Below, piece after piece: positions 2,733 to 38,300 of a stretch of 64,000 nt of DNA (the first letter of the stretch is position 1; the number at the start of each line of letters is the position of its first letter). The DNA lies in NCBI GenBank assembly GCA_963780225.1, contig CAWAAX010000006.1, positions 18,136 through 82,135 on the forward strand. Direction: 5' to 3'. The position numbers were made by a program, and so were the translations under genes. Origin of the DNA: an uncultured bacterium. GTDB taxonomy: Bacteria > Edwardsbacteria > AC1 > EtOH8. The notes under the pieces are model-generated. The model was not told the origin of the DNA. It saw only the letters and a program-made list of their open reading frames with translations, and ran no database searches.

Positions 2733-4964
2733 ATGCATAACTCCAACTTACATAAAATATTGCCTCTGGTACAGAGGCCGGGACGTTACACCGATAACGA
2801 ACTGAATTCCGTCCATAAAAACTGGGACCAGGCACAGGTAAAGATAGCTCTGGCCTATCCCGACCTTTACGAGATCGGGATGTCCGGCTTGGGGCTGGCC
2901 ATCCTTTATTCAGTGGTCAACCGGCTGCCGCAGGCATTGGCCGACCGCAGTTACCTGCCCTGGCCGGACATGGAAGAGGCCATGCGCAAGCAGGGTATCC
3001 CTCTGTTCGGATGGGAGACCCGGCGCGAGCTTAGGGAATTCGACGTCCTGGGCATCACCCTGCAGACCGAGCTGTGCTATGCCGGGGTGCTGAACCTGCT
3101 GGACCTGTCCGGCCTGCCGCTGTATGCTGATCAGCGAAAAGAGGAGCATCCCCTGGTGATCGGGGGCGGCTCCTGCTGCGCCAACCCGGCGCCGCTGTCA
3201 AAATTCTTTGATGCCTTCGTGATCGGAGACGGAGAGGAGGCCATCGTGGAGATCTGCGGGCAGCTGCAGGAAGCCAAAGCGAAAATCGAAAGCAGAAGGC
3301 AGAAAATCGAACGGTTGTCCCGGATCCCGGGTATCTATGTCCCCATGATCCATGATGGAACAAAAACCAAGATCCGGGCCAGGCATATCGCCTCACTGGA
3401 CATCAAAGACGCCGCCCACCCGCCGCTGGTGCCGCTGGTGGAGGTGACCCACGACCGGCTGACGGTGGAGATCGCCCGGGGCTGCACCCGGGGCTGCCGT
3501 TTCTGCCAGGCCGGGATGGTCTACCGCCCCCGGCTGGTAAGGTCCGAAGACGAGGTGGTGAAGCTGGCCAGGGAGGGCATCGCCAAAAGCGGCTGGGACG
3601 AGGTCTCGCTGCTCTCGCTTTCCTCCGGGGATTACCCGGATCTCCTGGGGCTGTTGCAGAAACTTAACGGTTGTTTTTCCAATTCCAAAGTGGCCATCTC
3701 CCTGCCGTCATTGCGGCTGGATTCCTTTGACGGGGAGATGATAGAGGCCCTGAAAAAGGTGAAGAAGACCGGACTGACCTTTGCCCCCGAGGCCGGCAGC
3801 CAGCGTCTGAGGGATGTGATCAACAAGGGGATCAGCAAAGAAGAATTATTGCGGGTGATAGCCCTGGCCAAAAAAGAGGGCTGGATGCAGGTCAAGCTGT
3901 ATTTCATGATCGGTTTGCCCACCGAGACCGAAGAGGACCTCAAGGAGTTGTGCGACCTCTGCCACCAGGCGTCAAAACTGGGGGTCAACCTTAAAGTGGC
4001 GGTCTCGCCCTTCGTGCCCAAGGCCCAGACCCCGTTCCAGTGGGAGGCCCAGGACAGCTGGGAGACGCTGTACCAGAAGATAGACCTTTTGTCCCGGGGC
4101 CTCAAGTCCCACAAGGTCCAGATGAAATGGCACGACCTGCGATCCTCCAAGCTGGAGGGACTGCTGGCCCGGGGCGGCAGCGAAACGGCGGCCCTGATAG
4201 AAAAGGCCTGGCAGAAGGGGGCCAAGCTGGACCAGTGGAGCGAGCATTTTGTCTGGGGGCGCTGGGAAGAGGCGATGCAGGAACTGGGCCTCGATCTGAA
4301 TAATTTGTGCCGGGCCAGGACCGACGAGGAAACATTGCCCTGGGATAACATTGATTACGGGGTCTCCAAGAAATTCCTGCTGCAGGAAAAGCAGAAAGCC
4401 TACCAGGAGCAGATCACTTCTGACTGCCGGGAGCAGGGATGCCACGGCTGCGGGGCGGACTGCGGGACGCAGGGAACAGGGATCAGGGATCAGATGTCAG
4501 GGGACAGGGGACAGGAGGCAGGGGACAGCTTAAAGCATAAAGCTGTCAGCTTACAGCTTGTTGATGGTTTCGGGCGCAGCGCCAAGAAGATGGCCGGGCC
4601 GGCCCCGCTGGCCAGGACCAAGTTCCGCCTGCGCTATGCCAAGGGGCCCGAGCTTCGCTTCATCTCGCACCTGGACCTGATGCGGGCCTGGCTGAGGGCC
4701 GTCAGCCGGGCGGAGCTGCCGGTGGCCTTCTCCCAGGGCTTTTCCCCGCATCCCAAAATAGCCTTTGGCCCGCCGCTGGCCCTGGGGCTGACCACCAGCG
4801 CCGATTACATGGACATCCAGCTGGACCGGCCGCTTTCTGAGGACATCGGACTGCTGATCAACCCCCATTTGCCGCCGGGGTTGAATGTGCTGGAGTCCAA
4901 GCCAATCTTCGGCAACGCAAAGTCAATCACCGAGCTGTGCGACGCCGCTGAATACCGGGTCTAA
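2733..4964 (+). CDS. B12-binding-domain radical SAM protein (TIGR03960-like) fused to a radical-SAM-associated DUF2344 (TIGR03936-like) domain; ends at an in-frame TAA
   Basis: The CxxxCxxC motif 'CTRGCRFC' sits within 'VEIARGCTRGCRFCQAGMVY'. The C-terminal part 'RFRLRYAKGPELRFISHLDLMRAWLRAVSRAELPVAFSQGFSPHPKIAFGPPLALG' is DUF2344-like. Confidence 0.7.
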   Translation: MHNSNLHKILPLVQRPGRYTDNELNSVHKNWDQAQVKIALAYPDLYEIGMSGLGLAILYSVVNRLPQALADRSYLPWPDMEEAMRKQGIPLFGWETRRELREFDVLGITLQTELCYAGVLNLLDLSGLPLYADQRKEEHPLVIGGGSCCANPAPLSKFFDAFVIGDGEEAIVEICGQLQEAKAKIESRRQKIERLSRIPGIYVPMIHDGTKTKIRARHIASLDIKDAAHPPLVPLVEVTHDRLTVEIARGCTRGCRFCQAGMVYRPRLVRSEDEVVKLAREGIAKSGWDEVSLLSLSSGDYPDLLGLLQKLNGCFSNSKVAISLPSLRLDSFDGEMIEALKKVKKTGLTFAPEAGSQRLRDVINKGISKEELLRVIALAKKEGWMQVKLYFMIGLPTETEEDLKELCDLCHQASKLGVNLKVAVSPFVPKAQTPFQWEAQDSWETLYQKIDLLSRGLKSHKVQMKWHDLRSSKLEGLLARGGSETAALIEKAWQKGAKLDQWSEHFVWGRWEEAMQELGLDLNNLCRARTDEETLPWDNIDYGVSKKFLLQEKQKAYQEQITSDCREQGCHGCGADCGTQGTGIRDQMSGDRGQEAGDSLKHKAVSLQLVDGFGRSAKKMAGPAPLARTKFRLRYAKGPELRFISHLDLMRAWLRAVSRAELPVAFSQGFSPHPKIAFGPPLALGLTTSADYMDIQLDRPLSEDIGLLINPHLPPGLNVLESKPIFGNAKSITELCDAAEYRV

Positions 4965-5285
4965 GTGATGAGACCTTCGATCCTCCGGACCGCAGTGCAG
5001 AAGGCCAGAGTGATTCTGGACGGCAAAAAGCCCTGGCCGGTCAATGTCCTGCGCAAGGACCAGCACAAGGAACTGGACCTGGCTCCCCAGATACTGGACA
5101 TCTCGGACGAGGCCGGTTCTCTTAAGATCAAAATGCGGCTGGTGGAGGGCGGGGTCAAGCTGAACGAGGCGCTGGCGGTGATACTGGAACTGCCGGAGGG
5201 CAGGATCAAGCAGCTGCTGATAGAGCGGGTAGGGATGTACCACATTACGCCACGGGAGATGCTGAGCCCCATGCGGTTTGTTTAA
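4965..5285 (+). CDS. Continuation of the DUF2344 domain, same frame as the upstream gene and separated from it only by TAA
   Basis: It starts at GTG directly after the TAA at 4962-4964 in frame 0. The sequence 'ILDGKKPWPVNVLRKD...LKIKMRLVEGGVKLNEALAVIL' resembles the C-terminal half of TIGR03936-family proteins. Confidence 0.5.
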   Translation: MMRPSILRTAVQKARVILDGKKPWPVNVLRKDQHKELDLAPQILDISDEAGSLKIKMRLVEGGVKLNEALAVILELPEGRIKQLLIERVGMYHITPREMLSPMRFV

Positions 5286-5297
5286 AGCTTTTTATTT

Positions 5298-5395
5298 AAC
5301 CACAGAAAGCACAAAGGGCACAAAAAATTTCTTTCTATATTTCTCAAGTGGTTTTTAAATCGTGATCCTATGTGATTTATGTGCATTTTGTGGTT
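5298..5395. repeat. Gene-less inverted-repeat hairpin of the CACRAAR family
   Basis: The left arm aaccacagaaagcacaaagggcacaaaa (5298-5327) is complementary to the right arm tgtgatttatgtgcattttgtggtt (5371-5395). The right arm is nearly identical to the right arm at 8836-8857. Confidence 0.6.
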
Positions 5396-5429
5396 AATTA
5401 AGGTAATCGGTAAAGGTGTTGGTTGAAAA

Positions 5430-6158
5430 ATGCGGAACATCAAACTTCTTCTTGAATACGACGGCACGGCCTTTGCCGGATGGCAGGTTCAGCCGGAGCA
5501 GCGCACGGTGCAGGGGGTGCTGGAGTCGGCCCTGTCCCAGATGACCGGGGAGAAGGTGTCGCTGACAGGCTCGGGCCGCACCGACGCCGGGGTCCACGCT
5601 TCGGGACAGGTGGCTAATTTCAGGACAGAAAAGGACATTCCCTTAAAAGCCTTCAACGAGGGCCTGAATGCATTGCTCCCAAAGGATGTGGCAGTGCTGA
5701 AGGCCGAAGAGGCCGACCCTGAATTTCATTCCCGCTTCGGCGCCAAGAGCAGGCTGTACCGCTACCAGATCATAACCCGGCGTTCGCCTCTGCTGGAGCG
5801 CTATGCCTGGAGGATCCTCTATCCGCTGAACCGGGAGGTCCTGCCGGAGCTGTGCAACGTCATTCTGGGAAAACACGATTTCACCGCCTTCGCCTCGGCC
5901 CAGGCCGAGGTGGACAATTTCAACGTGAACGTGACCCGGGCCGGCTGGAAGGATTACGGGGGCGTGCTCAGCTTTGAGATCCTGGCCGACCGCTTTCTGC
6001 ACAACATGGTGCGGATCATCGTAGGGACCATGATGGACACGGCCCGGGGGCGCCTTAAGCCGGAGGATATGAAGAAAATACTGGAGTCCAGGGACCGGAC
6101 CCTGGCCGGTAAGACCGCCCCGGCCTGCGGTCTGTGTTTGGTGAAGGTGGAGTATTGA
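5430..6158 (+). CDS. truA: tRNA pseudouridine(38-40) synthase
   Basis: 'LEYDGTAFAGWQVQ...GSGRTDAGVHASGQVANF' is the TruA signature. Confidence 0.9.
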   Translation: MRNIKLLLEYDGTAFAGWQVQPEQRTVQGVLESALSQMTGEKVSLTGSGRTDAGVHASGQVANFRTEKDIPLKAFNEGLNALLPKDVAVLKAEEADPEFHSRFGAKSRLYRYQIITRRSPLLERYAWRILYPLNREVLPELCNVILGKHDFTAFASAQAEVDNFNVNVTRAGWKDYGGVLSFEILADRFLHNMVRIIVGTMMDTARGRLKPEDMKKILESRDRTLAGKTAPACGLCLVKVEY

Positions 6159-6168
6159 GATTGGTATA

Positions 6169-6200
6169 TTATCCGCAGATTACGCAGATTGCACAGATTT
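6169..6200 (+). promoter_or_regulatory. TTATCCGCAGATT plus three 9-bp tandem CAGATTnnn repeats (DnaA-box-like core)
   Basis: ttatccgCAGATTacgCAGATTgcaCAGATTtt. Related copies lie at 11254-11277 and 23437-23459. Confidence 0.4.
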
Positions 6201-6284
6201 TATTTCCGTATCTTTCCTATAGCATGTAATTACAATGTAATTACATAAAATTATTTGATTATTTCATATTAAGACCAAAGAACC

Positions 6285-7517
6285 ATGATCAAAAGCATCA
6301 AAGGCGGCAAAGCCTGGCCGCACAAGAATTTCATCTTCGATCAGCCGATCGAAGCCTTGACGGCCCCCAAGGCGCTGGCCATCACATTATGGCACGGGGG
6401 GCGGGCCGTGGTGGCCAAGGGCGACCAGCTCAAGGCCAATGCGCAGGTGGGCTTCGATAATGCCGGACTGCCGGTGTTCACCGGGCTGGCCGGCAGGGTT
6501 ACCAGCGTGGCGGATTTTCCGGACCTGGTGGCCCGGCCCACGGAATTTGATTTCCCCCGGACCACGGTGTTCATAGAGACCGAGCCGGACCAGCCCGCCC
6601 GGGAGCCGGTGTTCGAACCCTGCCCCCGGTTCTGGAAACTTTCCAAGGCCGAACTGGCCGACCGGGTCTTTAAGGCCGGGGTGGCCGATCTGCGGAAGGA
6701 CGATCTGGAGAAGTACCTGATCTTCGACGGGCTGGACCTGGAACCGCCGTTGTCAACCAATGTCCGTCTGTTGAAGGAACGGCCCCAGGAACTTATCGAA
6801 GGCATGCGGATAGTGATGCAGATCCACAGCTCCACCCGGGCCAGGCTGGTGCTGTCATCCCGGATGAAGGCGCTGATCGCCGATCTCAAGTCTCTGCTGG
6901 CCAGCGCGGTCAACATCTCCATAGAAAAGGTCGAGCCGAAATACCCCCAGCAGAACGGAAAACTTGTCAGGCAGACTGTCTATCGGAGCCAATCCGCGGC
7001 CATCTACGGAATGGAGGCCCTGCTTAACGTCCGGCGGGCGGTGGTGCTGGGCCAGCCGCTGGCCACCAAGTTCTGCACCCTGTGCGACGACACCAAGGGC
7101 CAGAAGCGCCTGGCCGAGGTTTACATCGGCGCCAGCGCCGCCGAAACGCTTAACCTAAGGCCCCAGGATTACTCCAACCTGAAGCTGATATCCGGAGGCC
7201 TGCTCAGCGGTACCTGTCATTACAGCATCCAGCTGCCGGTGGACCGGAATACTTCCGGGCTGATGTTCTACCGCAATCCGCCGCTAAAAGAAAACCATCC
7301 CTGCATCAACTGCGGGCAGTGTCTGGCCATCTGTCCGGCGGGGCTGGCCCCGGCCCGGATATTTCCCCTGGTCCGCGACGGGCAAACTGAAGAACTGGCC
7401 CGGTTGAAGCCGGAAAACTGCCTGGAATGCGGGCTCTGCACTTTCATCTGTCCCGGAGGACTGTTGTTGTCGCACCAGATAAAAGTGGGTAAAATGATAC
7501 TGGAGGGCAAACTGTGA
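6285..7517 (+). CDS. RnfC-like protein (RnfC-type N-terminal fold plus two C-terminal 4Fe-4S clusters); the canonical NADH/FMN-binding glycine motif was not seen
   Basis: 'KVEPKYPQQNGKLV' corresponds to the RnfC 'PTKYPSGGAKQL' region. 'CINCGQCLAICPAG' and 'CLECGLCTFICPGG' are the two cluster motifs. Confidence 0.5.
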   Translation: MIKSIKGGKAWPHKNFIFDQPIEALTAPKALAITLWHGGRAVVAKGDQLKANAQVGFDNAGLPVFTGLAGRVTSVADFPDLVARPTEFDFPRTTVFIETEPDQPAREPVFEPCPRFWKLSKAELADRVFKAGVADLRKDDLEKYLIFDGLDLEPPLSTNVRLLKERPQELIEGMRIVMQIHSSTRARLVLSSRMKALIADLKSLLASAVNISIEKVEPKYPQQNGKLVRQTVYRSQSAAIYGMEALLNVRRAVVLGQPLATKFCTLCDDTKGQKRLAEVYIGASAAETLNLRPQDYSNLKLISGGLLSGTCHYSIQLPVDRNTSGLMFYRNPPLKENHPCINCGQCLAICPAGLAPARIFPLVRDGQTEELARLKPENCLECGLCTFICPGGLLLSHQIKVGKMILEGKL

Positions 7518-8368
7518 TGCTGAATGTTTCCCTGCCGCCCCATATCACCAGTCGCTATCGCTTGAAACAATGGCAGTTTCGCAGGATGGTAGCAATGATC
7601 CCTATGGTTTTCTCGGCGCTCTACCTTTTCGAAACGGGATTTTTGTACTGCCTGCTGGCCGGGCTGGCCGGCTCAATTCTCCTGCCACTGATAGTAAAAA
7701 AATGGCGCCGCAATTTTCTGGACCTGGCCGAGACCCTCTTCACCGCCTCCATAATAGCCCTGCTGATGCCTGCCGGAGTTGATTGGTATTATCCGCTTTT
7801 GGCCGGGTTGGTGATCTCGGGATCCAGGGCCTTGCTTTCGGAAAAGGACCGGCTGGCGCCGGTGAATTTCATGGCCCTGACCTTCGCTTTATTTGTGCTG
7901 GCCACCCCGGAAGGCCTGGATATGGCCTCTCTCTGGGCGGTCAACAACGGCGGCTGGGCCAAGGGGAATTTTTACTTCATGACCGGCTGGCTGCCTTTGG
8001 TCTTCAGTCTGGTCCTGTTGCTGCTGCTTACCGGGAGGCTCTATAAGATCATGATACTGCTGTTGTCCCTGTTGTCGGCCGGTGCGGTGTTTGCGCTGAC
8101 CGGACTTCCGCAGATGGGGCAGTCCGGCCTGGCCGGACTGCAGGCCCTGCTGTTTTTGGCCGGGATCCTGGCAGTTGACAATAACCATACGCCGCTGACC
8201 GGCCGGGGACAGGCCATCTACGGGCTTTTGACCGGAGCGGTCTTTGCGCTGTTTGCCCTGAAAGGCCTGCTGTACCAGGGTCTGATATTCTCGGCGTTGA
8301 CGGCCAGTCTGTTCACTCCGTTCCTGGATTGTCTGTTCACCGGGGGGTACCGCAGGACAAAAGGCTAG
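7514..8368 (+). CDS. Polytopic membrane protein, RnfD/NqrB-like
   Basis: It overlaps the upstream gene by 4 bp and has multiple hydrophobic helices. 'LFTASIIALLMPAGVDWYYPLLAGLVISG' resembles the RnfD '[23 protein letters not shown]' segment. Confidence 0.35.
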   Translation: MMLNVSLPPHITSRYRLKQWQFRRMVAMIPMVFSALYLFETGFLYCLLAGLAGSILLPLIVKKWRRNFLDLAETLFTASIIALLMPAGVDWYYPLLAGLVISGSRALLSEKDRLAPVNFMALTFALFVLATPEGLDMASLWAVNNGGWAKGNFYFMTGWLPLVFSLVLLLLLTGRLYKIMILLLSLLSAGAVFALTGLPQMGQSGLAGLQALLFLAGILAVDNNHTPLTGRGQAIYGLLTGAVFALFALKGLLYQGLIFSALTASLFTPFLDCLFTGGYRRTKG

Positions 8369-8415
8369 AAATTGTCGGGCCTGGGTGGTAAATTATGAAT
8401 CAATAAATTAATTTA

Positions 8416-8857
8416 CCACAAAAAGCACAAGGAACACATAAAATGACGGATAACGAAGTATTGCGACTATGTGATATTGTTAGGCAGACGGCCTTTGTTC
8501 TTCATACCTATTTACGGAACGGCCATTTGGAAAAGGTATATGAAAACGGATTAACCCATCGTCTTCGTAAGGCAGGAATAAAGGTCGAACAGCAGCACCC
8601 TTTAAAGGTTTTTGACGAAGATGGAACCATTCTGGGGGAGTACTTCGCAGACCTGTTAATAGAAACGGAACTTATCGTCGAACTTAAGGTCTGCAAGGCA
8701 ATAGCAGATGAGCACCTGTCCCAAGTATTCGGATATTTACGCGCCACAGGGCAGCGACATGGATTATTAATTAATTTTGGATCGCAACAAATTCAATTTA
8801 AGAAATTGGTTTTGTAGGTATGGCGTTAATTTTGCGATTTATGTGCTTCTTGTGGTT
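8416..8857. repeat. Matched inverted-repeat pair enclosing a GxxExxY gene
   Basis: The left arm ccacaaaaagcacaaggaacacataaa (8416-8442) ends 1 bp before the ATG. The right arm gatttatgtgcttcttgtggtt (8836-8857) lies 19 bp after the stop. Arm cores ccacaaRaagcaca...taaa are complementary. Confidence 0.6.
8443..8817 (+). CDS. GxxExxY family protein (PD-(D/E)XK-like small protein), paralog 1
   Basis: 'LEKVYENGL...GEYFADLLIETELIVELK...' matches the GxxExxY pattern. It is paralogous to the ORFs at 18126 and 27504. Confidence 0.8.
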   Translation: MTDNEVLRLCDIVRQTAFVLHTYLRNGHLEKVYENGLTHRLRKAGIKVEQQHPLKVFDEDGTILGEYFADLLIETELIVELKVCKAIADEHLSQVFGYLRATGQRHGLLINFGSQQIQFKKLVL

Positions 8858-8880
8858 GAATAAATATACCTTTTTACGAA

Positions 8881-8909
8881 TTGACAACCAGAGGGAAAAT
8901 TGGTAGAAT
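8881..8909 (+). promoter_or_regulatory. Sigma70-like promoter upstream of recA
   Basis: TTGACA (8881-8886), a 17-bp spacer, then TAGAAT (8904-8909). Confidence 0.55.
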
Positions 8910-8971
8910 TAAAATCCATAACTATTTATATAACAACAAATTAAATTATTGTTTACACGGAGGACAAACCA

Positions 8972-10057
8972 ATGGCAGACACAGCGGCAGAAAAATCAAA
9001 AGCTTTGGACCTGGCTCTTTCTCAGATAGAAAAGCAGTTCGGCAAAGGTTCGATAATGAAACTGGGCTCCAATTCGGCGATAGTTCCGGTGGAGGTGATC
9101 CCCACCGGGTCCATCTCGCTGGATGCGGCCCTGGGAGTGGGCGGGGTGCCCCGGGGCAGGATCGTGGAGATATACGGACCGGAGGCCTCCGGCAAGACCA
9201 CCCTGGCCCTGTCCATAGTGGCCCAGGCCCAGAAGCTGGGCGGCACCGCCGCCTACATCGACGCCGAGCATGCCATGGACCCCAAGTACGCCAAGGCCCT
9301 GGGGGTGGATATAGACAATCTCCTGGTAGCCCAGCCCGACACCGGCGAGGAGGCCCTGGAGATCACCGAGACCCTGATCCGCTCCAACGCCATGGACGTG
9401 ATAGTCATTGACTCGGTGGCGGCCCTGGTGCCCAAGGCCGAGATCGAAGGCGACATGGGAGACAGCCACATGGGCCTGCAGGCCCGGCTGATGTCCCAGG
9501 CTTTGCGCAAGATCACGGCGGTGGCCAACCGCTCCAAGACATGCATCATCTTCATCAACCAGATCCGGATGAAGATCGGGGTGATGTTCGGCAACCCCGA
9601 GACCACCCCCGGCGGCCTGGCCCTCAAGTTCCACGCCTCGATACGGATGGACATCCGGCGGATCGAGGCCATCAAGCAGGGCGAGGTCAACATCGGCAAC
9701 CGGGTGCGGGTGAAGGTGCTTAAGAACAAGGTGGCCTCGCCCTTCCGCAACGCCGAGTTCGAGATCATCTTCGGCCAGGGCATCAGCTACATCGGCGACC
9801 TGCTGGACCTGGCGGTGGAGAACAACATCATTGAAAAGAGCGGCACCTGGTTCTCCTTCAAGGGCGAGCGGCTGGGGCAGGGCCGGGAGAACGTGCGCGA
9901 GATGCTGAAGACCAACGCCGACCTGCTGGCCGACCTGGACAAGGATGTCAAGGCCAAGCTGGGGATAGCCGCGGCCGCCAAGTCCGAGGGCCCCAAGGAG
10001 GCCCGGGAGCCGGCCAAGGAAGAGGAGAAGGAGAAGGGGAGAAAAGGCAGAAAATAA
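8972..10057 (+). CDS. recA: Recombinase RecA
   Basis: '[23 protein letters not shown]...[15 protein letters not shown]' is canonical RecA. Confidence 0.97.
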
Positions 10058-10162
10058 ATTCAGAAGGCAAAATAAAATAACTTGCAATAACTGAGATTAA
10101 CCGGATGGATGTGCTAATCATTTAACATGCAGAATGTAAATTCCAAATTGTAAATCTGTAAA

Positions 10163-11224
10163 TTGAAGAATTGCATCCAGTGTCTTTTGCCGGAGAGCGC
10201 ACCGGGCATCAGCTTTGATGATTCCGGGATCTGCAACTACTGCCGGACATACAAGAAGACCGAGCTTAACGGCGAGGAGGCCCTGTTAAGGATCCTTGAC
10301 CGCCAGCGCCGCCGGGGCGGAAAGTACCAGTGCCTGGTGCCATTGAGCGGCGGCCGTGACAGCACCTTTGCCCTGCTGAAGATGGTCCGAGATTACGGTC
10401 TGACTGCTTTGGCGGTGAATTATCAGAATCCTTTTACTTCACCCGAAGCTGCTGCGAATATTCGGCAGGCCACCGAAAAACTGGGGGTGGAACTGGTGAG
10501 CTTTGGTCTAAAGCCGGGTTTGCACCAAATGACACTCAAGAAGAACCTGGAGGCCTGGCTCAAAAGGCCGTCGGCGGCGCTGGTTCCGATAATCTGCAGC
10601 GCCTGCCACAACATGTGGCTGCCGATCATGCAGATCGCCAAGAAACACGATATCCATTGCATAGTCACCGGGCGCAACCCCTACGAGGAGGTCTCGTTCA
10701 AACGCCGCCTGCTGGGGGTCAGCCCCGACGAGGACATCAGGAATGTCTATCTAAAGAACCTCGGAGGAATAGTCAAGGAGGCGGCCAAGAACCTGTCCTA
10801 TTTCTCGCCCCAAACCCTGCCGGTGATGATCAAGGGGCATTTCTTCGGCAGTCCCTATGCTTTGGGAACCAGGATCTACGGCCGCGGCATCGAAATGGCT
10901 GACCTGTTCTTTTACCTGCCCTGGAACGAATCTGAAGTCATGTCCCGGATCCAAAACGAGTTGGGCTGGCAAAGCCCCAAAGAGCAGGGCAACACCTGGC
11001 GCTTCGACTGCAGGGTTTCGCACCTGCGGGATCTGATGTACCAGAAGACCATCGGGATGACCGAGCGCCAGGAGCTTTACGCCCGGCTGATCCGCGAGGG
11101 GTTGATATCCAAACAGGAAATTGGAAACCGGCTGCCGGTGGAGAATGCCATCCATTATGACAAGATTGAGGCCCTGTTGGACGAAGTGGGCATAAGGGAC
11201 AGGTCTTACCTAAGACAGGAGTGA
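10163..11224 (+). CDS. N-acetyl sugar amidotransferase (PP-loop ATPase, WbuX/TIGR03573-like), polysaccharide biosynthesis
   Basis: It has the N-terminal Cys cluster 'CIQCLLPESAPGISFDDSGICNYC' and the PP-loop 'SGGRDS'. The start codon is TTG. Confidence 0.6.
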   Translation: MKNCIQCLLPESAPGISFDDSGICNYCRTYKKTELNGEEALLRILDRQRRRGGKYQCLVPLSGGRDSTFALLKMVRDYGLTALAVNYQNPFTSPEAAANIRQATEKLGVELVSFGLKPGLHQMTLKKNLEAWLKRPSAALVPIICSACHNMWLPIMQIAKKHDIHCIVTGRNPYEEVSFKRRLLGVSPDEDIRNVYLKNLGGIVKEAAKNLSYFSPQTLPVMIKGHFFGSPYALGTRIYGRGIEMADLFFYLPWNESEVMSRIQNELGWQSPKEQGNTWRFDCRVSHLRDLMYQKTIGMTERQELYARLIREGLISKQEIGNRLPVENAIHYDKIEALLDEVGIRDRSYLRQE

Positions 11225-11253
11225 ACCAAATCTCTTATTTACCAAGGTTGTCC

Positions 11254-11314
11254 TTATCCACAGATTAACGCAGATTGTCACCAATTATATTCATAATCAA
11301 TCTGTGTAAATCTG
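11254..11314. promoter_or_regulatory. TTATCCACAGATTAACGCAGATTG (exact DnaA-box consensus TTATCCACA) with an inverted partner CAATCTGTGTAAATCTG
   Basis: The direct copy is at 11254-11277 and the inverted partner at 11298-11314. Both lie in the amidotransferase/MIF intergenic region. Confidence 0.45.
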
Positions 11315-11417
11315 AGAAATCGTTCGGCTAACGCTCACGACAGCGTCTGCGGATTAAAAAACCACGGGGCAATTTGTCTGGATGACTTCATATGAGAACC
11401 TGAACGGAGGCGCAAAC

Positions 11418-11813
11418 ATGCCCATCATCGAAATAAAAGCCCTGCCCCAGAAACCGGAGGTCAACATCTCCGATACGCTGAAGACCATCTGCGTGCGACT
11501 GGCCGACAAGATGGGGCTGCAGCCCAAGCAGGTCTGGGCCACTTGGACCACCATCGAGCCCGGCTGCTATCTGGAAGGCGAGGCCCAGGCTAGGGTCCAG
11601 CCCTACGGAACCCATCCGCCGCTGGTGAACATGCTGGCCTTTGAAGGCAAGAGCGAAAGCGAAATAGAAACGGCCATGCTGACCATCGCCGAGGAGCTGG
11701 CCAAGCGCCTGCAGATAGATCCCGAGAACATTTTCATCAAATACGACGAGACCAGGTCCGGCCGGGTCTTCACCGGGGGGACGACCATCATCAAGACCAA
11801 ACACGGTAAATGA
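11418..11813 (+). CDS. MIF/tautomerase-superfamily protein
   Basis: Starting at ATG 11418, preceded by a GGAGG RBS, gives the N-terminus 'MPIIEIK' (Pro1). 'LQIDPENIFIKYDETRSGRVFTGGTT' resembles the MIF C-terminal segment. Confidence 0.45.
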   Translation: MPIIEIKALPQKPEVNISDTLKTICVRLADKMGLQPKQVWATWTTIEPGCYLEGEAQARVQPYGTHPPLVNMLAFEGKSESEIETAMLTIAEELAKRLQIDPENIFIKYDETRSGRVFTGGTTIIKTKHGK

Positions 11814-11829
11814 GATGCCGGGGCTTTTC

Positions 11830-11916
11830 GCCACTAAGGCACAAAGACACAAAGGGTATTAAAAATAGTACCAAGCGCGATAAATAATTTTCTTGGAGCC
11901 TTGGTGTCTTTGTGGC
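11830..11916. repeat. Gene-less inverted-repeat hairpin of the CACRAAR family
   Basis: gccactaaggcacaaagacacaaagg (11830-11855) is complementary to ccttggtgtctttgtggc (11899-11916). It uses the same octamer units (aaagacac, taaggcac) as the arms flanking the GxxExxY gene at 27504. Confidence 0.6.
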
Positions 11917-11932
11917 TAGTAAAGGTCTTAAT

Positions 11933-12406
11933 ATGAAGATCATGAACGCCAAGGCCTACGCCCTGCGGTTGATAGAACTGAAGCCCCGCAGTGTTCATGA
12001 GATCAGGGACAAGCTGGCCAAGAAGGGCATAGACAAGGCCGAGATCGAAGCGGTTATCGCTGGTCTGGAATCCATCGGCCTTTTGAACGATGAGAAATTC
12101 GCCCGGGACTGGATCGAGAACCGCCAGCATTTTAGGCCCATGGGTGTGATACGCCTGCGGCAGGAGCTTTTTGCCAAGGGGATAGACCGGGAGATAGTGG
12201 ACCAGGCCATCTCTGATTACAAAAGCAATGCGGACGAGTTGCCGGCGGCCCTGGACCTGGCCCGGAGAAAGATGAGGCTTTTCAGCAAGCTTGACGCCGA
12301 GGCCGCCAAGCGCCGTCTGGCGGGATTTCTGGCCCGAAGGGGGTACGAGGTTTCGATAGTTTCCAAGGTGTTGAAGGAACTGCTGAAGGAAAATATTTTG
12401 GAATAA
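11933..12406 (+). CDS. recX: Recombination regulator RecX
   Basis: 'AYALRLIELKPRSVHEIRDKLAKKGI...' is a RecX helical-repeat protein. The ATG at 11933 follows an AAAGG RBS. Confidence 0.8.
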   Translation: MKIMNAKAYALRLIELKPRSVHEIRDKLAKKGIDKAEIEAVIAGLESIGLLNDEKFARDWIENRQHFRPMGVIRLRQELFAKGIDREIVDQAISDYKSNADELPAALDLARRKMRLFSKLDAEAAKRRLAGFLARRGYEVSIVSKVLKELLKENILE

Positions 12407-13634: not shown

Positions 13635-14276
13635 ATGTCGCCTAAAAACAATATTAACCCAACGCCTGTAACAGTTGAGAATAAAATAGAATTGCCAAAA
13701 CAAAATAATGGTATGGCATTTTGGGCTTTGGGAATTTCAGTGATATCACTTATAATAAGTAGTCTTTCCACTTATTGGATTGCGTACCCAAATTACAGTT
13801 TGAAAATTATCGATGCCAATTTATGTTTTAATGTGAAGGCCCTGTATGATACAACTTATTTAGACTCAAATTATGTGGAGTGTAAATTTTATAATGATGG
13901 CAATAGAGCTGTAACAGTAAAAGATTTTCGCTTTTACCTATCCGATAAAAATGATTCCATGTTGTTCGTTTTTCAAGATGACGTTGTTTGCCCAAAACAA
14001 ATAGAACCTGGTGATTATGCCGAAAGTATAGTAAAACTGTCTTTCATAAGGGTATATAACCCACCACCACAGCAAATCACAAAGATGAAATATCGTTTAC
14101 CTTATAAAAATTACAGCAGTTGGAAAATGTTATCCGATTCATTTCGCATGGGCCAAGCAAGTTTACCCTTAAAACGGGAAATAGAATTTAATATTAAAAT
14201 ACATTATGCCGGGAATAAAGAGCTTAAGTATAAACGATCAATTTCATGTATTTGGCCAATTCCTATAGAAGATTAA
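13635..14276 (+). CDS. Hypothetical membrane-anchored protein in an AT-rich island
   Basis: It has one N-terminal TM helix, no recognisable domain, and local base composition far more AT-rich than its neighbours. Confidence 0.4.
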   Translation: MSPKNNINPTPVTVENKIELPKQNNGMAFWALGISVISLIISSLSTYWIAYPNYSLKIIDANLCFNVKALYDTTYLDSNYVECKFYNDGNRAVTVKDFRFYLSDKNDSMLFVFQDDVVCPKQIEPGDYAESIVKLSFIRVYNPPPQQITKMKYRLPYKNYSSWKMLSDSFRMGQASLPLKREIEFNIKIHYAGNKELKYKRSISCIWPIPIED

Positions 14277-17290: not shown

Positions 17291-18049
17291 ATGATCTACC
17301 AACAACTGCTGAAAACCGCCAAGCAAAAGGGCTCGAATTTCCTGGTCCTTTTGGACCCCGACAAGTGCAAAAAACAGGACGCGGCCAAGATCGGCCAGGC
17401 CTTGAACGACGCCGGGGCCGATGGCATCCTGTTCGGCACCAGCCTGCTGATGTCCAACCAGATCGACGACACCATCAAGGCCTTAAAGCAGAACTTCAAA
17501 CAGCCGGTGATCATATTCCCCGGCAGCGCCTACCAGGTCTCGCCGCACGCCGATGCCATCCTGTACCTGTCGCTGGTCTCGGGCCGCAATGCGGAACTAT
17601 TGATCGGTGAGCAGGTCAAGGCCGCGCCCATGCTGAAAGCCTCGGGCCTGGAGGTGATCCCCACCGGCTACATGTTGATCGAGTCCGGCAAGCTGACCTC
17701 GGCCAACTACATGAGTCACACCATGCCCATCCCCCGGGACAAGTCCGACATCGCCATGGCCCACGCCCTGGCCGCCCGGATGCTGGGGATGAAGCTGATC
17801 TACATGGACGCCGGCAGCGGCGCCCAGCAGAGCGTCCCAGAGGAGATGATCGCCGGGGTGGCCAAATATGCCGAGCTTCCCGTTGTGGTGGGAGGCGGCA
17901 TCAAAACGCCCGAGGACGCCGGGGCCAAGGCCCGGGCCGGGGCCGCCGCGGTGGTGGTGGGGAACATTTTGGAGAAGAAGGGCAACATCAAGACGGCGGC
18001 GGATTTCGCCAGGGCTATTCACTTCAGGGCGAAAACAAACCGGGGCTAA
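17291..18049 (+). CDS. Geranylgeranylglyceryl/heptaprenylglyceryl phosphate synthase family protein (PcrB/GGGPS)
   Basis: 'LVLLDPDK...ADGILFGTS...IIFPGS...LIYMDAGSGA...VVVGGGIKT' follows the GGGPS/PcrB TIM-barrel pattern. A GGAGG RBS precedes the ATG. Confidence 0.7.
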   Translation: MIYQQLLKTAKQKGSNFLVLLDPDKCKKQDAAKIGQALNDAGADGILFGTSLLMSNQIDDTIKALKQNFKQPVIIFPGSAYQVSPHADAILYLSLVSGRNAELLIGEQVKAAPMLKASGLEVIPTGYMLIESGKLTSANYMSHTMPIPRDKSDIAMAHALAARMLGMKLIYMDAGSGAQQSVPEEMIAGVAKYAELPVVVGGGIKTPEDAGAKARAGAAAVVVGNILEKKGNIKTAADFARAIHFRAKTNRG

Positions 18050-18545
18050 CCACGGAAACACGGAATTTATGAAAACACGGAAACATATAAAATGATTTGT
18101 TTGATTACGTTAGGTGTGTTTATATATGAGTATAGTAAGATCTGACCATTTGGAATTAGAAGAATTAACAGGGAATATTATTTCTTGCGGAATAGAAGTC
18201 CATAAAAAACTAGGTCCCGGATTTCTGGAATCGCTATATGAATCTGCTTTGCTGGTAGAACTTCAAAAAAGAGGCTTGCATACCACAAGTCAAAAGGAGA
18301 TCAGGGTATTTTATGACGGATTTGAAATTGGCGTACACCGGCTGGACATTGTCGTAGAGAATAAAGTTATTGTTGAACTTAAAGCGGTCGCTGAACTTGA
18401 CCAATGCCATAAAGCACAGTTGCTGTCATATCTCAAGGCTAGTCATTTAAAAATTGGGTTACTGTTAAATTTTTCTAAAAATATTCTCCAGGTGAAAAGG
18501 ATGGCATATTGATTCCCAGAATTCCTCATTCAGTGTTTCCGTGGT
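18048..18545. repeat. Matched inverted-repeat pair enclosing a GxxExxY gene
   Basis: The left arm aaccacggaaacacggaatttatgaaaacacggaaacatataaa (18048-18091) is complementary to the right arm cagtgtttccgtggt (18531-18545). The core is accacggaaacac. Confidence 0.6.
18126..18512 (+). CDS. GxxExxY family protein, paralog 2
   Basis: 'HKKLGPGFLESLYESAL...IVVENKVIVELKAV' is paralogous to 8443 and 27504. The ORF-track start at 18114 is GTG; the ATG at 18126 is the more likely start. Confidence 0.8.
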   Translation: MSIVRSDHLELEELTGNIISCGIEVHKKLGPGFLESLYESALLVELQKRGLHTTSQKEIRVFYDGFEIGVHRLDIVVENKVIVELKAVAELDQCHKAQLLSYLKASHLKIGLLLNFSKNILQVKRMAY

Positions 18546-27475: not shown

Positions 27476-27922
27476 GCCACAAAGACACTAAGGCACGAAA
27501 ATCATGAATTATCAACCGCTATCAACAGTAGAAGAAGAGCGGGCAAAGAAAATCGTAGATGCCGCATATGCAGTGCATAAAAAACTGGGTCCGGGGTTGC
27601 TGGAAAAAGTATACGAGGTATGTTTTTGGCATGAATTGTCTAAACGGGAATTAAGGTACCAAAGGCAAGTTGATGTACCGATTGTTTATGACGGTATAAC
27701 GTTTGATGAAGGACTATGTTTAGATGTCCTGGTGGAAAACAGCATCATCTGTGAATTGAAAGCCGTAGATGAGATGAATCCAGTCTGGGAAGCACAAATA
27801 CTGAGCCATTTAAAACTAACTGGCAAACGCCTTGGATTTCTCATCAATTTTAATCTGTCAGTTATCAAAAACGGTATTAAACGATTTATTGTATAAACTT
27901 GGTGACTTAGTGTCTTTGTGGC
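27476..27922. repeat. Matched inverted-repeat pair enclosing a GxxExxY gene
   Basis: The left arm gccacaaagacactaaggcacgaaaatc (27476-27503) abuts the ATG. The right arm cttggtgacttagtgtctttgtggc (27898-27922) lies 2 bp after the stop. The 17-bp core gccacaaagacactaag is perfectly complementary. Confidence 0.7.
27504..27896 (+). CDS. GxxExxY family protein, paralog 3
   Basis: 'HKKLGPGLLEKVYEVCF...LDVLVENSIICELKAV' matches the GxxExxY pattern. Confidence 0.8.
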   Translation: MNYQPLSTVEEERAKKIVDAAYAVHKKLGPGLLEKVYEVCFWHELSKRELRYQRQVDVPIVYDGITFDEGLCLDVLVENSIICELKAVDEMNPVWEAQILSHLKLTGKRLGFLINFNLSVIKNGIKRFIV

Positions 27923-30448: not shown

Positions 30449-31033
30449 ATGTCACTACTTTCAACCCATTTACATTTAGCAATTTTAGTATTGAACAAAA
30501 AAAAAGGTTCATTTTCTGACCATCCTTATCCTTTTTTGTTGGGCAACATTGCTCCAGATTGTGTGAATTTGAACGACAATACATTATTTTATAAAAGCCA
30601 TTTTGTAGAAGGACATGTAATTAATTGCGCAAAATTTATCGATGATTACTTGCCGCAATTCCAGTCGGAAGAAGAAATATCCTTTATATACGGCTATCAC
30701 TGCCATTTGTGGCTTGACGAATATGATAAAGCCAATAATATAGTAGAATATGGCCATCCCGAAAGTAAAAGTGTAGCAGAACAAAAAACTAATTTGCGGA
30801 ACGAAATAAAAGCAATAGATCGAGATACCATAGTAACGTTTGACAAAACGCTGTATAAGCATGATATTGCAAATTTAAAATTGCCAAATATTGAGCAATC
30901 CGTCAAACGTTATAAAGATATTCTTGAGAATGTATGCTCTTTTGAATACAATATCAGTGGAGTTACAAAGGAAACTTATCATTCCTATTTGCAAAAAGCA
31001 TGTATGGAATATTTAGCGATTTCCTGCAGCTAA
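30449..31033 (+). CDS. Hypothetical protein in an AT-rich island; possible Zn-dependent phospholipase-C-like fold
   Basis: 'STHLHLAI...FLLGNIAPD' weakly resembles the N-terminal His/Asp metal-ligand region of bacterial Zn-PLC-like proteins. Local composition is AT-rich. Confidence 0.3.
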   Translation: MSLLSTHLHLAILVLNKKKGSFSDHPYPFLLGNIAPDCVNLNDNTLFYKSHFVEGHVINCAKFIDDYLPQFQSEEEISFIYGYHCHLWLDEYDKANNIVEYGHPESKSVAEQKTNLRNEIKAIDRDTIVTFDKTLYKHDIANLKLPNIEQSVKRYKDILENVCSFEYNISGVTKETYHSYLQKACMEYLAISCS

Positions 31034-36593: not shown

Positions 36594-36838
36594 AAGCTTC
36601 GGACCGCCCCCCTGCCCCCTCCGTTGCGGAGGGGGAGGGGAGTGTCCCTCTCCACATTGGAGAGGGACAAAGGGAGAGGTCAAAAGCTTCGGACCGCCCC
36701 CTCGTTCCCCCTCCGTAGCGGAGGGGGAATAGGTTGTGTGAATAGTTATGTGTTGATATGTTTGATGATGTAAATAAAACTGATGACGAAATCCCTCTCC
36801 ACAATGGAGAGGGGGAGGGGAGAGGTCGAACCAGGCCA
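36594..36838. repeat. GC-rich mosaic palindromic repeat modules between the MTase gene and the DUF559 gene
   Basis: aagcttcggaccgcccccctgccccctccgttgcggagggggag... occurs twice, and atccctctccacaatggagaggg extends into the 5' end of the DUF559 ORF. Confidence 0.7.
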
Positions 36839-37219
36839 GCCCACCCCAAGGGCAGCACCGGGATTATCAGGCTGCAAAAAGTGAAAAGCAGCAAATTAGA
36901 GTTGGCCAAATATTTCAGACAGCATATGACACTTGGCGAAAGGTGCTTCTGGAATATGACCCGCAAGAACCAGGTCAACGGTTACCGATTCAGACGCCAG
37001 CAGGTGATCCACGGCTTTGTTGCCGATTTCTACTGCAACCAGATAAACCTGGTGGTCGAGATAGACGGCGGCATCCACGAACAGCAGAAGGACTACGACA
37101 AGCTTCGCACAAAAATAATTAACCAGTACGGCATCCGGGTCATACGTTTTACCAACGAAGAAATGATGGATAAAAGCGATTGGGTGTTGGAGAAGTTGAA
37201 GGAAGCTGCGAGAAGTTGA
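36758..37219 (+). CDS. DUF559 (Vsr-like endonuclease-fold) protein; the 5' boundary is uncertain because the ORF's first ~25 codons are repeat sequence
   Basis: 'KLELAKYFRQHMTLGERCFWNMTR...GYRFRRQQVIHGFVADFYCNQINLVVEIDGGIHEQQKDYDKLRTKIINQYGIRVIRFTNEEM' is the DUF559 pattern. Confidence 0.7.
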   Translation: MFDDVNKTDDEIPLHNGEGEGRGRTRPAHPKGSTGIIRLQKVKSSKLELAKYFRQHMTLGERCFWNMTRKNQVNGYRFRRQQVIHGFVADFYCNQINLVVEIDGGIHEQQKDYDKLRTKIINQYGIRVIRFTNEEMMDKSDWVLEKLKEAARS

Positions 37220-37223
37220 TTGC

Positions 37224-37374
37224 CTAAAGCTTCGGACCGCCCCCTCGTTCCCCACTTTCGCTTGTCGTAGTGTTCTGCCTTGCTCAGTGCAGGCACTCCG
37301 TTGCGGAGGGGGAGGACAGACATCCCTCTCCACATTGGAGAGGGATAAAGGGAGAGGTCGAACCCCGCAGGACG
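37224..37374. repeat. GC-rich mosaic palindromic repeat modules downstream of the DUF559 gene
   Basis: ctaaagcttcggaccgccccctcgttccccactttcgcttgtcgtagtgttctgccttgctcagtgcaggcactccgttgcggagggggag...catccctctccacattggagagggataaagggagaggtcgaacc. Confidence 0.7.
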
Positions 37375-37877: not shown

Positions 37878-38300
37878 GCACCAAAACCTAAATCCTAAAC
37901 CCTAAACAAATTCCAAATCATAAGCCATAAACCCAAAACAGTTCGTTGTTTTGAGTTTGGCGAATTTATATTTGTTTAGAATTTAGATACTTGCTTCCAT
38001 CGCCGGGCAGTAGGGGCGAAGCACTAAATCCGAAATCCGAAATCCTAAACAATCCCAAATTATCAAAACCTAAAACTCAAAACTGTTTCGTACTTTGTAT
38101 TTAAACAATTAGAATTTGTTTTGAGTTTAGATACTTACTTCTATCGCAGGGCAGCAGGGGCGAAGCCCTAAATCCGAGATACGAAATCCTAAACAATCCC
38201 AAATGACCAAAACCTAAAACTCAAAACGGTTTCGTGCTTTGTATTTAATAATTAGAATTTGTTTTGAATTTAGATATTAGTATTTAGAGATTTAACCAGT
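37878..38300. repeat. Three tandem copies of a ~145-bp highly structured AT-rich repeat immediately upstream of mutL
   Basis: Units start near 37878, 38021 and 38166. Each contains the inverted repeat aaaacctaaaactcaaaac / gttttgagtttag, (g/t)aaatcc microrepeats, and a G-rich tail ctatcgcagggcagcaggggcgaag. Confidence 0.75.

Follow-up and report, generated by a model that had tools for sequence, protein, structure and literature searches.

A GxxExxY nuclease gene between arrayed inverted arms, and gene-less hairpins with related arms, in an uncultured Edwardsbacteria genome

The segment at 8416-8857 of the window (the whole 64-kb stretch of DNA analysed here, from an uncultured Edwardsbacteria bacterium) is best explained, with middling confidence on our part, as a copy of a nuclease-associated palindromic element whose family is very widespread and has MITE- or REPIN-like derivatives. 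A cassette of this family consists of two inverted arms, each an array of short units, set tightly around a single GxxExxY nuclease gene of ~125 codons. Hairpins with the same arms and no gene would be its non-autonomous form, and far outnumber the form that carries the gene.

The window has 53.7% G+C with AT-rich spacers, and nearly all of its genes are on the + strand. Cassette 1 has rnfD and recA as neighbours, and its parts are listed in Table 1 with those of the related elements. A sequence-only reading had described the left arm, CCACAAAAAGCACAAGGAACACATAAA, as abutting the start codon, and the arm does run into the ATG at 8443; the right arm, said to follow the stop, is indeed downstream of it, although it begins 18 nt past the stop codon and not directly. 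Complementarity between the two arms scores 13, where the shuffle mean is 8.05 and 14 of 1000 shuffles equal or beat the observed value. This is the weakest pairing among the three window cassettes and is moderately significant alone, so that the case for it depends chiefly on the pattern seen across the family, described below. Just past the right arm, at 8881-8909, is a strong sigma-70-like promoter (TTGACA, 17-nt spacer, TAGAAT, upstream TG), conserved in relatives, which probably belongs to recA; for the cassettes themselves no promoter was predicted.

Table 1. Cassettes and gene-less hairpins of the window (window coordinates)
Feature	Position	Strand	Description
Gene-less hairpin 1	5298-5395		Left arm 5300-5327 (three units), 46-nt loop, right arm 5374-5395
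Cassette 1, left arm	8416-8442	+	Three tandem units, CACAAAAAG / CACAAGGAA / CACATAAA, the last ending at the ATG
Cassette 1, GxxExxY gene	8443-8817	+	124 aa, predicted minimal Cas4/RecB-type PD-(D/E)XK nuclease
Cassette 1, right arm	8836-8857	+	GATTTATGTGCTTCTTGTGGTT, two units, complementary to the left arm
Gene-less hairpin 2, cassette-3 arm type	11832-11917		GCCACTAAGGCACAAAGACACAAAGG ... CCTTGGTGTCTTTGTGGC
Cassette 2	18049-18545	+	Arms ACCACGGAAACACGGAAT / ATTCAGTGTTTCCGTGGT around GxxExxY paralogue 18126-18512
Cassette 3	27476-27922	+	Arms GCCACAAAGACACTAAGGCACGAA / TTGGTGACTTAGTGTCTTTGTGGC around GxxExxY paralogue 27504-27896

The right arms of cassette 1 and gene-less hairpin 1 are identical at 20 of 22 bases, a strong match for which the earlier figure of about 22 of 24 was slightly generous. 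With up to three mismatches allowed, the right arm finds these two sites only in the 64 kb; 100 shuffles give an expectation of 0.00, which places the similarity far above random. The left-arm core that the two elements had been said to share holds at 14 of 15 bases (CCACARAAAGCACAA), and the pattern CCACAARAAGCACA with up to two mismatches has five matches in the window (0.98 expected), four of which are the four arms. Compared arm by arm, cassette 1 and gene-less hairpin 1 score 15.5 on the left and 17 on the right, cassette 3 and gene-less hairpin 2 score 13.5 and 14.5, and the remaining like-for-like comparisons (left with left, right with right) reach at most 10.5; each gene-less hairpin of the window matches one resident cassette type. 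Cassette 1 and hairpin 1 both carry a 9-10-nt unit of the type CRCAAAARG, which accompanies the GxxExxY protein clade of cassette 1 in many phyla. The orthologous cassette of the relative L003 has a left arm with 94.7% identity to that of gene-less hairpin 1. The proposal that a gene-containing and a gene-less element belong to one subfamily is thus supported by the arm scores, the unit type and the L003 arm, and also by a deletion derivative in locus L017 (below).

Hairpin 1 folds with z = -3.45. That its loop is a remnant of the 3′ end of the cassette was not supported (score 8.0, shuffle mean 8.7). The loops of the gene-less hairpins in the window contain no ORF trace, and that of hairpin 1 has no significant similarity to the cassette interior. 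As this loop lacks such similarity, and as the same arms hold unrelated cargo in locus L099, hairpin and cassette are linked through their arms, and not by a demonstrable descent of the one from the other.

The two further GxxExxY paralogues were found with tblastn and are ~35% and ~33% identical to the cassette 1 protein (31% and 30% over the full alignment). In all three cassettes the left arm is made of three tandem 8-10-nt units that start with CAC. With only 31-35% identity among the paralogues, there was no recent burst here. Other repeats in the window are of different kinds. An arm of the type CCGCAGATTACGCAGATTGCACAGATT occurs as a solo arm at 6173-6200 and in a hairpin at 11255-11318 (fold z = -4.75); this hairpin is absent in both L003 and L099, and units of its type are similar to the GACAGAT heptamers in the 23S intervening sequence of Coxiella. 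A DUF559 ORF (Vsr-like PD-(D/E)XK) at 36890-37219, within the stretch 36600-37350, is flanked by the palindromes CCCCCTCCGTTGCGGAGGGGG and TCCCTCTCCACATTGGAGAGGGA and represents a second kind of repeat-bracketed gene for a small nuclease. Three tandem hairpin units of ~115 nt, free of ORFs, lie at 37880-38280 and have heptamer-run arms (CCTAAAT / CCGAAAT / CCTAAAC ... GTTTTGAGTTTAG). Two AT-rich ORFs without hairpin arms (13635-14276 and 30449-31033) stand amid a string of genes of ~60% G+C and are probably foreign insertions; one resembles a Zn-dependent phospholipase C, and for the other Pfam gave no match.

The product of 8443-8817 matches TIGR04256 (E=2.7e-33, 114.8 bits, cut-off 35) and PF13366 (PDDEXK_3; E=8.8e-30, 103.9 bits, cut-off 22), in both cases over the full length. 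An alignment of 45 sequences shows the GxxExxY and catalytic residues G27, E30, Y33, D70, E80 and K82 to be invariant, as is Q94, with Y98 nearly so. The AlphaFold2 model (pLDDT 96.7) has a RecB-like nuclease fold and is Cas4-like. On this modelling the protein would be a minimal Cas4/RecB-type PD-(D/E)XK nuclease with an intact active site, and it appears to be functional, given the confident model, the invariant catalytic residues and the synonymous-only differences from the L001 copy. A sequence search of the PDB gave no relative. The family is large, with 26,739 clusters at 50% identity (E<=1e-3), and the one functional annotation of GxxExxY/PDDEXK_3 that our paper search found is 'Unknown' (PMC3424549). 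PADLOC defence models gave marginal matches only (the best, E=0.0016, being Cas4-like), PHROGs gave none, and phage records and a scan of viral contigs were without a GxxExxY match; plasmid records contained only seven distant matches, all on non-mobilizable plasmids. Being absent from the phage and viral sets and rare on plasmids, the family is not obviously phage- or plasmid-borne.

A scan of one genome per species yielded 80 loci with homologues 60-74% identical. The source lineages include Verrucomicrobia, Planctomycetes, Acidobacteria, Latescibacteria, Nitrospirae, Chloroflexi, Spirochaetes and Bacteroidota. Flanks of 120 nt on either side of each gene were compared for inverted repeats scoring at least 12. 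Under the stricter scheme, applied to 79 loci, flanking inverted arms were found in 64, and the mean of the shuffled controls was below 12 at every locus; under a milder mismatch penalty 70 of 80 pass, with the purine-rich arm coming first in 55. In these 55 the arms have a median length of 30 nt, and the median spacers are 10 nt between the first arm and the ATG and 3 nt between the stop and the second arm. Arms match better within an element than between loci. They are made of two to four tandem units of 8-10 bp, with the consensus GCC[A/G]CAAAAGGC[A/G]CAAAAGGC[A/G]CAAAA, also seen as (TT)GCC[A/G]CAAAA(A)GGC[A/G]CAAAAGGC[A/G]CAAAA. Arms were detected with unit-chain and regex detectors with shuffled controls, a nhmmer arm profile being too insensitive at so short a length; the unit-chain detector called 274 arms in 455 kb and 26 after shuffling. 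Tandem gene-less hairpins occur at many loci. The layout is reversed at nine loci, where the gene lies between complete hairpins and not inside one. In a Fusobacteria bacterium (ZRK30 plasmid, L220) a distant GxxExxY gene is flanked by repeats that are direct rather than inverted (CAGATTTAATCCGTGTACCTAT).

The sequence of the unit differs among protein clades, and for three clades it recurs in the cassettes of other genomes. Clade 1 has the unit CRCAAAAGG. Clade 2, found in Edwardsbacteria, Brocadiia, Ratteibacteria and others, has CAC[G/T]GAA in arms of the type ACCAC[G/T]GAAACAC[G/T]GAA, as in cassette 2. Clade 3 has the 8-nt unit CACNAAGG, and the fetched cassettes have arms of the type GCCACCAAGGCACAAAGGCAC, as in cassette 3; homologues of this third paralogue are ~80% identical, some of the entries being annotated as Deltaproteobacteria and Marinimicrobia. 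At the one locus from Bacteroides finegoldii, whose protein is 38% identical, the units are CRCRGAGGA and CACAGAGGA/CGCAGAGGA. Unit number varies as well: in the strains L214-L217, otherwise identical, the right arm downstream of the gene has two, three or four copies of the 8-nt TGTGTCTT. The agreement between clade and arm type could simply reflect joint inheritance of the gene with its arms.

The cassettes themselves are long-term residents. A cassette occupies the same rnfD-recA site in L001 (95.7% nucleotide identity), L099 (~90%) and L003 (87%), and the encoded proteins are 100%, 85% (P0003, from the L099 contig) and 74% identical to the window copy; L003 RecA is 98% identical. The window and L001 cassettes differ at four positions, all synonymous and none in the arms, and rnfD differs at 7.8% of its sites. 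Eleven Verrucomicrobia loci likewise have one insertion site in common. The shared rnfD-recA site and the shared Verrucomicrobia site point to long vertical inheritance and not to recent movement. Exact-protein look-ups for RnfD and RecA, aimed at empty sites, returned no match. Hairpins and their cargo vary among close relatives, some of which have them and others not. At 174-2480 in L099, arms orthologous to those of gene-less hairpin 1 bracket 2.25 kb of 40-47% G+C in place of the 46-nt loop of the window; this cargo is AT-rich foreign DNA and encodes a BNR-like protein and a FG-GAP protein with a type IX secretion tail.

Gene-less forms predominate. A metagenome scan with CCACARAAAGCACAARGRRCACA gave 127 matches on 115 contigs, only three of them directly followed by a GxxExxY ORF, and the 105 arms with unique flanks included ~50 in short hairpins, four in elements of cassette size and two with other cargo. 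In a soil subgroup the hairpin is a palindrome of 64 nt that has 0-4 mismatches and whose symmetry often runs unbroken through the centre; it is present at 10 or more sites with unrelated flanks (copies drawn from metagenome samples and not from one closed genome). Hairpins also enter genes in frame. The hsdM gene of L017 contains two tandem 69-nt hairpins (3946-4083), and those of L023 and L033 contain one at the same position, each copy adding 23 aa of the form ATKSAK.TKGNSVDSVPYVA; hsdM of L019, L043, L038, L046 and L058 has no hairpin at that position. Separately, in 9 of the 80 loci hsdM is the gene directly downstream of GxxExxY. Another hairpin of L017 still has, between its arms, the first ~13 codons of a GxxExxY ORF; internal deletion can thus turn a cassette into a gene-less form.

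The conserved end of the element is W-T-R-G-C-C-R-C. Among 94 elements no direct repeat exceeded chance at offsets 1-6, as a target-site duplication would, and the signal at offset 0 comes from the GC end of the element itself. Of 43 hairpins, 10-13 have palindromic flank extensions specific to the locus; in L159 (1530-1660), L119, L175 and L140 the conserved arms are directly followed, on their outer side, by inverted-repeat extensions of 13-33 nt. Flank extensions could come either from insertion into existing palindromes or from an origin by fold-back duplication. Both they and the loop-less perfect palindromes fit a step of inverted duplication at the DNA level. No transposase or recombinase was found within the cassettes, whose recurrent cargo is the PD-(D/E)XK nuclease only.

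If the family is what we propose, the nuclease would recognise, as DNA, the arrays of units typical of its own arms, and would cut at or near them. A PD-(D/E)XK nuclease by itself is unable to rejoin DNA. Host repair or replication might then copy or relocate the element, through homing into related hairpins or through fold-back inverted duplication. The arrangement would be comparable in operation to a MITE and its autonomous partner, or to a REPIN-RAYT pair, with a hydrolytic nuclease where those have a transposase: the cassette would persist by vertical descent and its gene-less hairpin derivatives would spread. Since the arms can also pair when transcribed by read-through, they probably have a further role in limiting nuclease expression or in making the insert tolerable within operons, as in the 23S rRNA intervening sequences. 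A bolder form of this proposal is offered tentatively, as possible though doubtful. GxxExxY genes with clade-specific arms would make up an unrecognised, pan-bacterial class of minimal nuclease-driven replicators, in which a 125-aa Cas4-like nuclease recognises 8-10-bp arrays; cleavage, with host fold-back or recombinational repair, would spread perfect palindromes (gene-less hairpins, in-frame insertions, possibly the ancestors of rRNA intervening sequences), and the gene would persist vertically, RAYT-like.

The arms might instead act in RNA. An element like an rRNA intervening sequence would have transcript arms that pair and are cut by RNase III, the cassette RNA being excised or silenced, so that the insertion is harmless in an operon and the nuclease is kept low. 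The Coxiella 23S intervening sequence shares the layout of the cassettes and is excised by RNase III (PMC4990558). The arms here are predicted to pair in RNA across the gene, the hairpin folds have z around -3.4, the number of units varies between strains (L214-L217), and the cassettes, for which no promoter is predicted, are mostly co-oriented with their neighbours (53/77 upstream, 57/71 downstream). The substitutions in the arms speak against this account. Over 1,660 aligned arm positions the non-Watson-Crick pairs comprise 70 G:T and 64 A:C, close to the neutral 1:1 and without the strong G:U excess of an RNA helix, and pair-specific covariation is absent; a single compensatory stepwise change among four orthologous cassettes (CACATAAA with TTTATGTG versus CACAAAAA with TTTTTGTG) is anecdotal. 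The A/G state of the CRC core agrees at 0.76-0.86 in units that do not pair and at 0.80-0.88 in units that do; agreement being equal in the two, the units evolve in concert over the whole element, which fits one recognition motif in repeated copies, as at the ends of transposons, better than it fits base pairing alone. Many gene-less copies are perfect palindromes without a loop. None of the 222 loci, totalling 1.18 Mb, contains rRNA or a conserved rRNA motif, and Rfam gave no match at the gathering threshold in the window and six loci, the sole match at E<=1 in 5200-12100 being a spurious miRNA. An RNA element would also leave the dispersal of hairpins and the clade-specific unit sequences unexplained. 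We consider it unlikely, and the evidence favours DNA ends recognised by a protein over a plain RNA stem.

The gene might also be a passenger. On that account the hairpins would be independent repeats, moved by another enzyme or maintained by the host, and the GxxExxY protein, a homing-type nuclease, would cut empty hairpins and be copied into them by repair across the arm homology. It would explain why hairpins are vastly more numerous than genes, why the gene sits exactly at the loop position with minimal spacers, and why the same arms can hold other cargo, as in the 2.25 kb of L099 and a PAS-domain ORF in L155; the nine loci of reversed layout also agree with it. The arms would provide only ~25-30 bp of homology, however, no candidate for the hairpin-moving enzyme was seen nearby, and the cassettes are stable at orthologous sites. 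That arm type follows protein clade suits homing and the element family we prefer equally. Overall, homing into independent repeats strikes us as improbable. A chance resemblance among AT-rich intergenic sequences, finally, is refuted and retains practically no probability: the intergenic DNA nearby is AT-rich and the complementarity within cassette 1 is modest, but the right-arm match has an expectation of 0 in shuffles, and 64 of 79 unrelated loci repeat the pattern, which also has three clade-specific variants.

Reading cassette 1 as a member of a nuclease-associated element family gives a large orphan protein family a candidate substrate, in the form of a near-constant and clade-specific DNA partner that is directly testable. 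If true, it would account for intergenic hairpins of a kind common both in human-gut Bacteroides and in many uncultured phyla. It bears on the origin of hairpin-bounded ORFs such as the rRNA intervening sequences, and on whether other enzyme classes have evolved partnerships like REPIN-RAYT. For annotation, it means that such hairpins may sit in frame in genes such as hsdM, or bracket foreign cargo. No description of the arms, or of a link between GxxExxY and arms, was found in Rfam or in the searchable literature (queried with GxxExxY, PF13366 and arm strings); the sole literature match to the arm strings was an unrelated paper on eye development (optic cup).

Bacterial MITEs, including the Rickettsia palindromic elements and the Neisseria Correia elements, are short multi-copy elements with inverted repeats that lie between genes and, in some cases, in frame within them. 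The gene-less hairpins are like MITEs in having terminal inverted repeats, many near-identical copies at unrelated sites and in-frame copies (hsdM), and at least one of them is a deletion derivative of the gene-carrying form (L017). They are unlike MITEs in that a target-site duplication and a DDE transposase partner are absent and the sole recurrent cargo is a 125-aa nuclease. In common with free-standing homing endonuclease genes, the cassettes have a small nuclease ORF of wide horizontal distribution, and the gene-less hairpins are possible vacant sites; in contrast to such genes, the cassettes encode a highly conserved protein and persist for long at fixed loci, and the putative target is a dispersed repeat and not a single allele. 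The protein has the RecB-like fold in common with Cas4 and the RecB family, at about half their size, and with only two cysteines (C10 and C84) it is without the four-cysteine Fe-S cluster of Cas4; with rnfD and recA as the adjoining genes, no cas gene was noticed in the vicinity.

In REPIN-RAYT systems, as with the cassettes, inverted copies of a repeat stand on both sides of one gene and hairpin doublets without a gene are dispersed in intergenic DNA; the gene descends vertically at one locus, and each gene lineage has its own repeat type (PMC3116915, PMC5581495). The enzymes differ, a RAYT being an HUH tyrosine (Y1, IS200-like) transposase and that of the cassettes a predicted hydrolytic Cas4/RecB-like nuclease; in the cassette gene Pfam and NCBIfam found only PDDEXK_3 / GxxExxY, and no HUH or Y1 transposase. 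The repeats differ as well: cassette arms are arrays of direct 8-10-bp units, while REPs are individual palindromes with a GTAG or CGTC tag. The intervening sequences of 23S rRNA (helix 25/45, e.g. in Coxiella and Leptospira) resemble the cassettes in length (~430-450 nt), in their stem of 20-28 bp, in a single small ORF in the loop and in short tandem repeats just before the ATG whose number varies by strain; that of Coxiella has about 430-444 nt, a 28-bp terminal stem, a loop ORF and three tandem heptamers just before the ATG, in strain-variable number (PMC4990558). Unlike these, the cassettes lie outside rRNA, helix 25/45 included (no conserved rRNA motif in 222 loci), their ORF encodes a PD-(D/E)XK nuclease and not the S23p four-helix-bundle protein, gene-less copies are abundant and dispersed, and the mismatch statistics are against a purely RNA-level constraint. 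In function the cassettes resemble MITEs accompanied by an autonomous partner, or REPIN-RAYT pairs; in architecture they are closest to the 23S rRNA intervening sequences. They belong to neither group.
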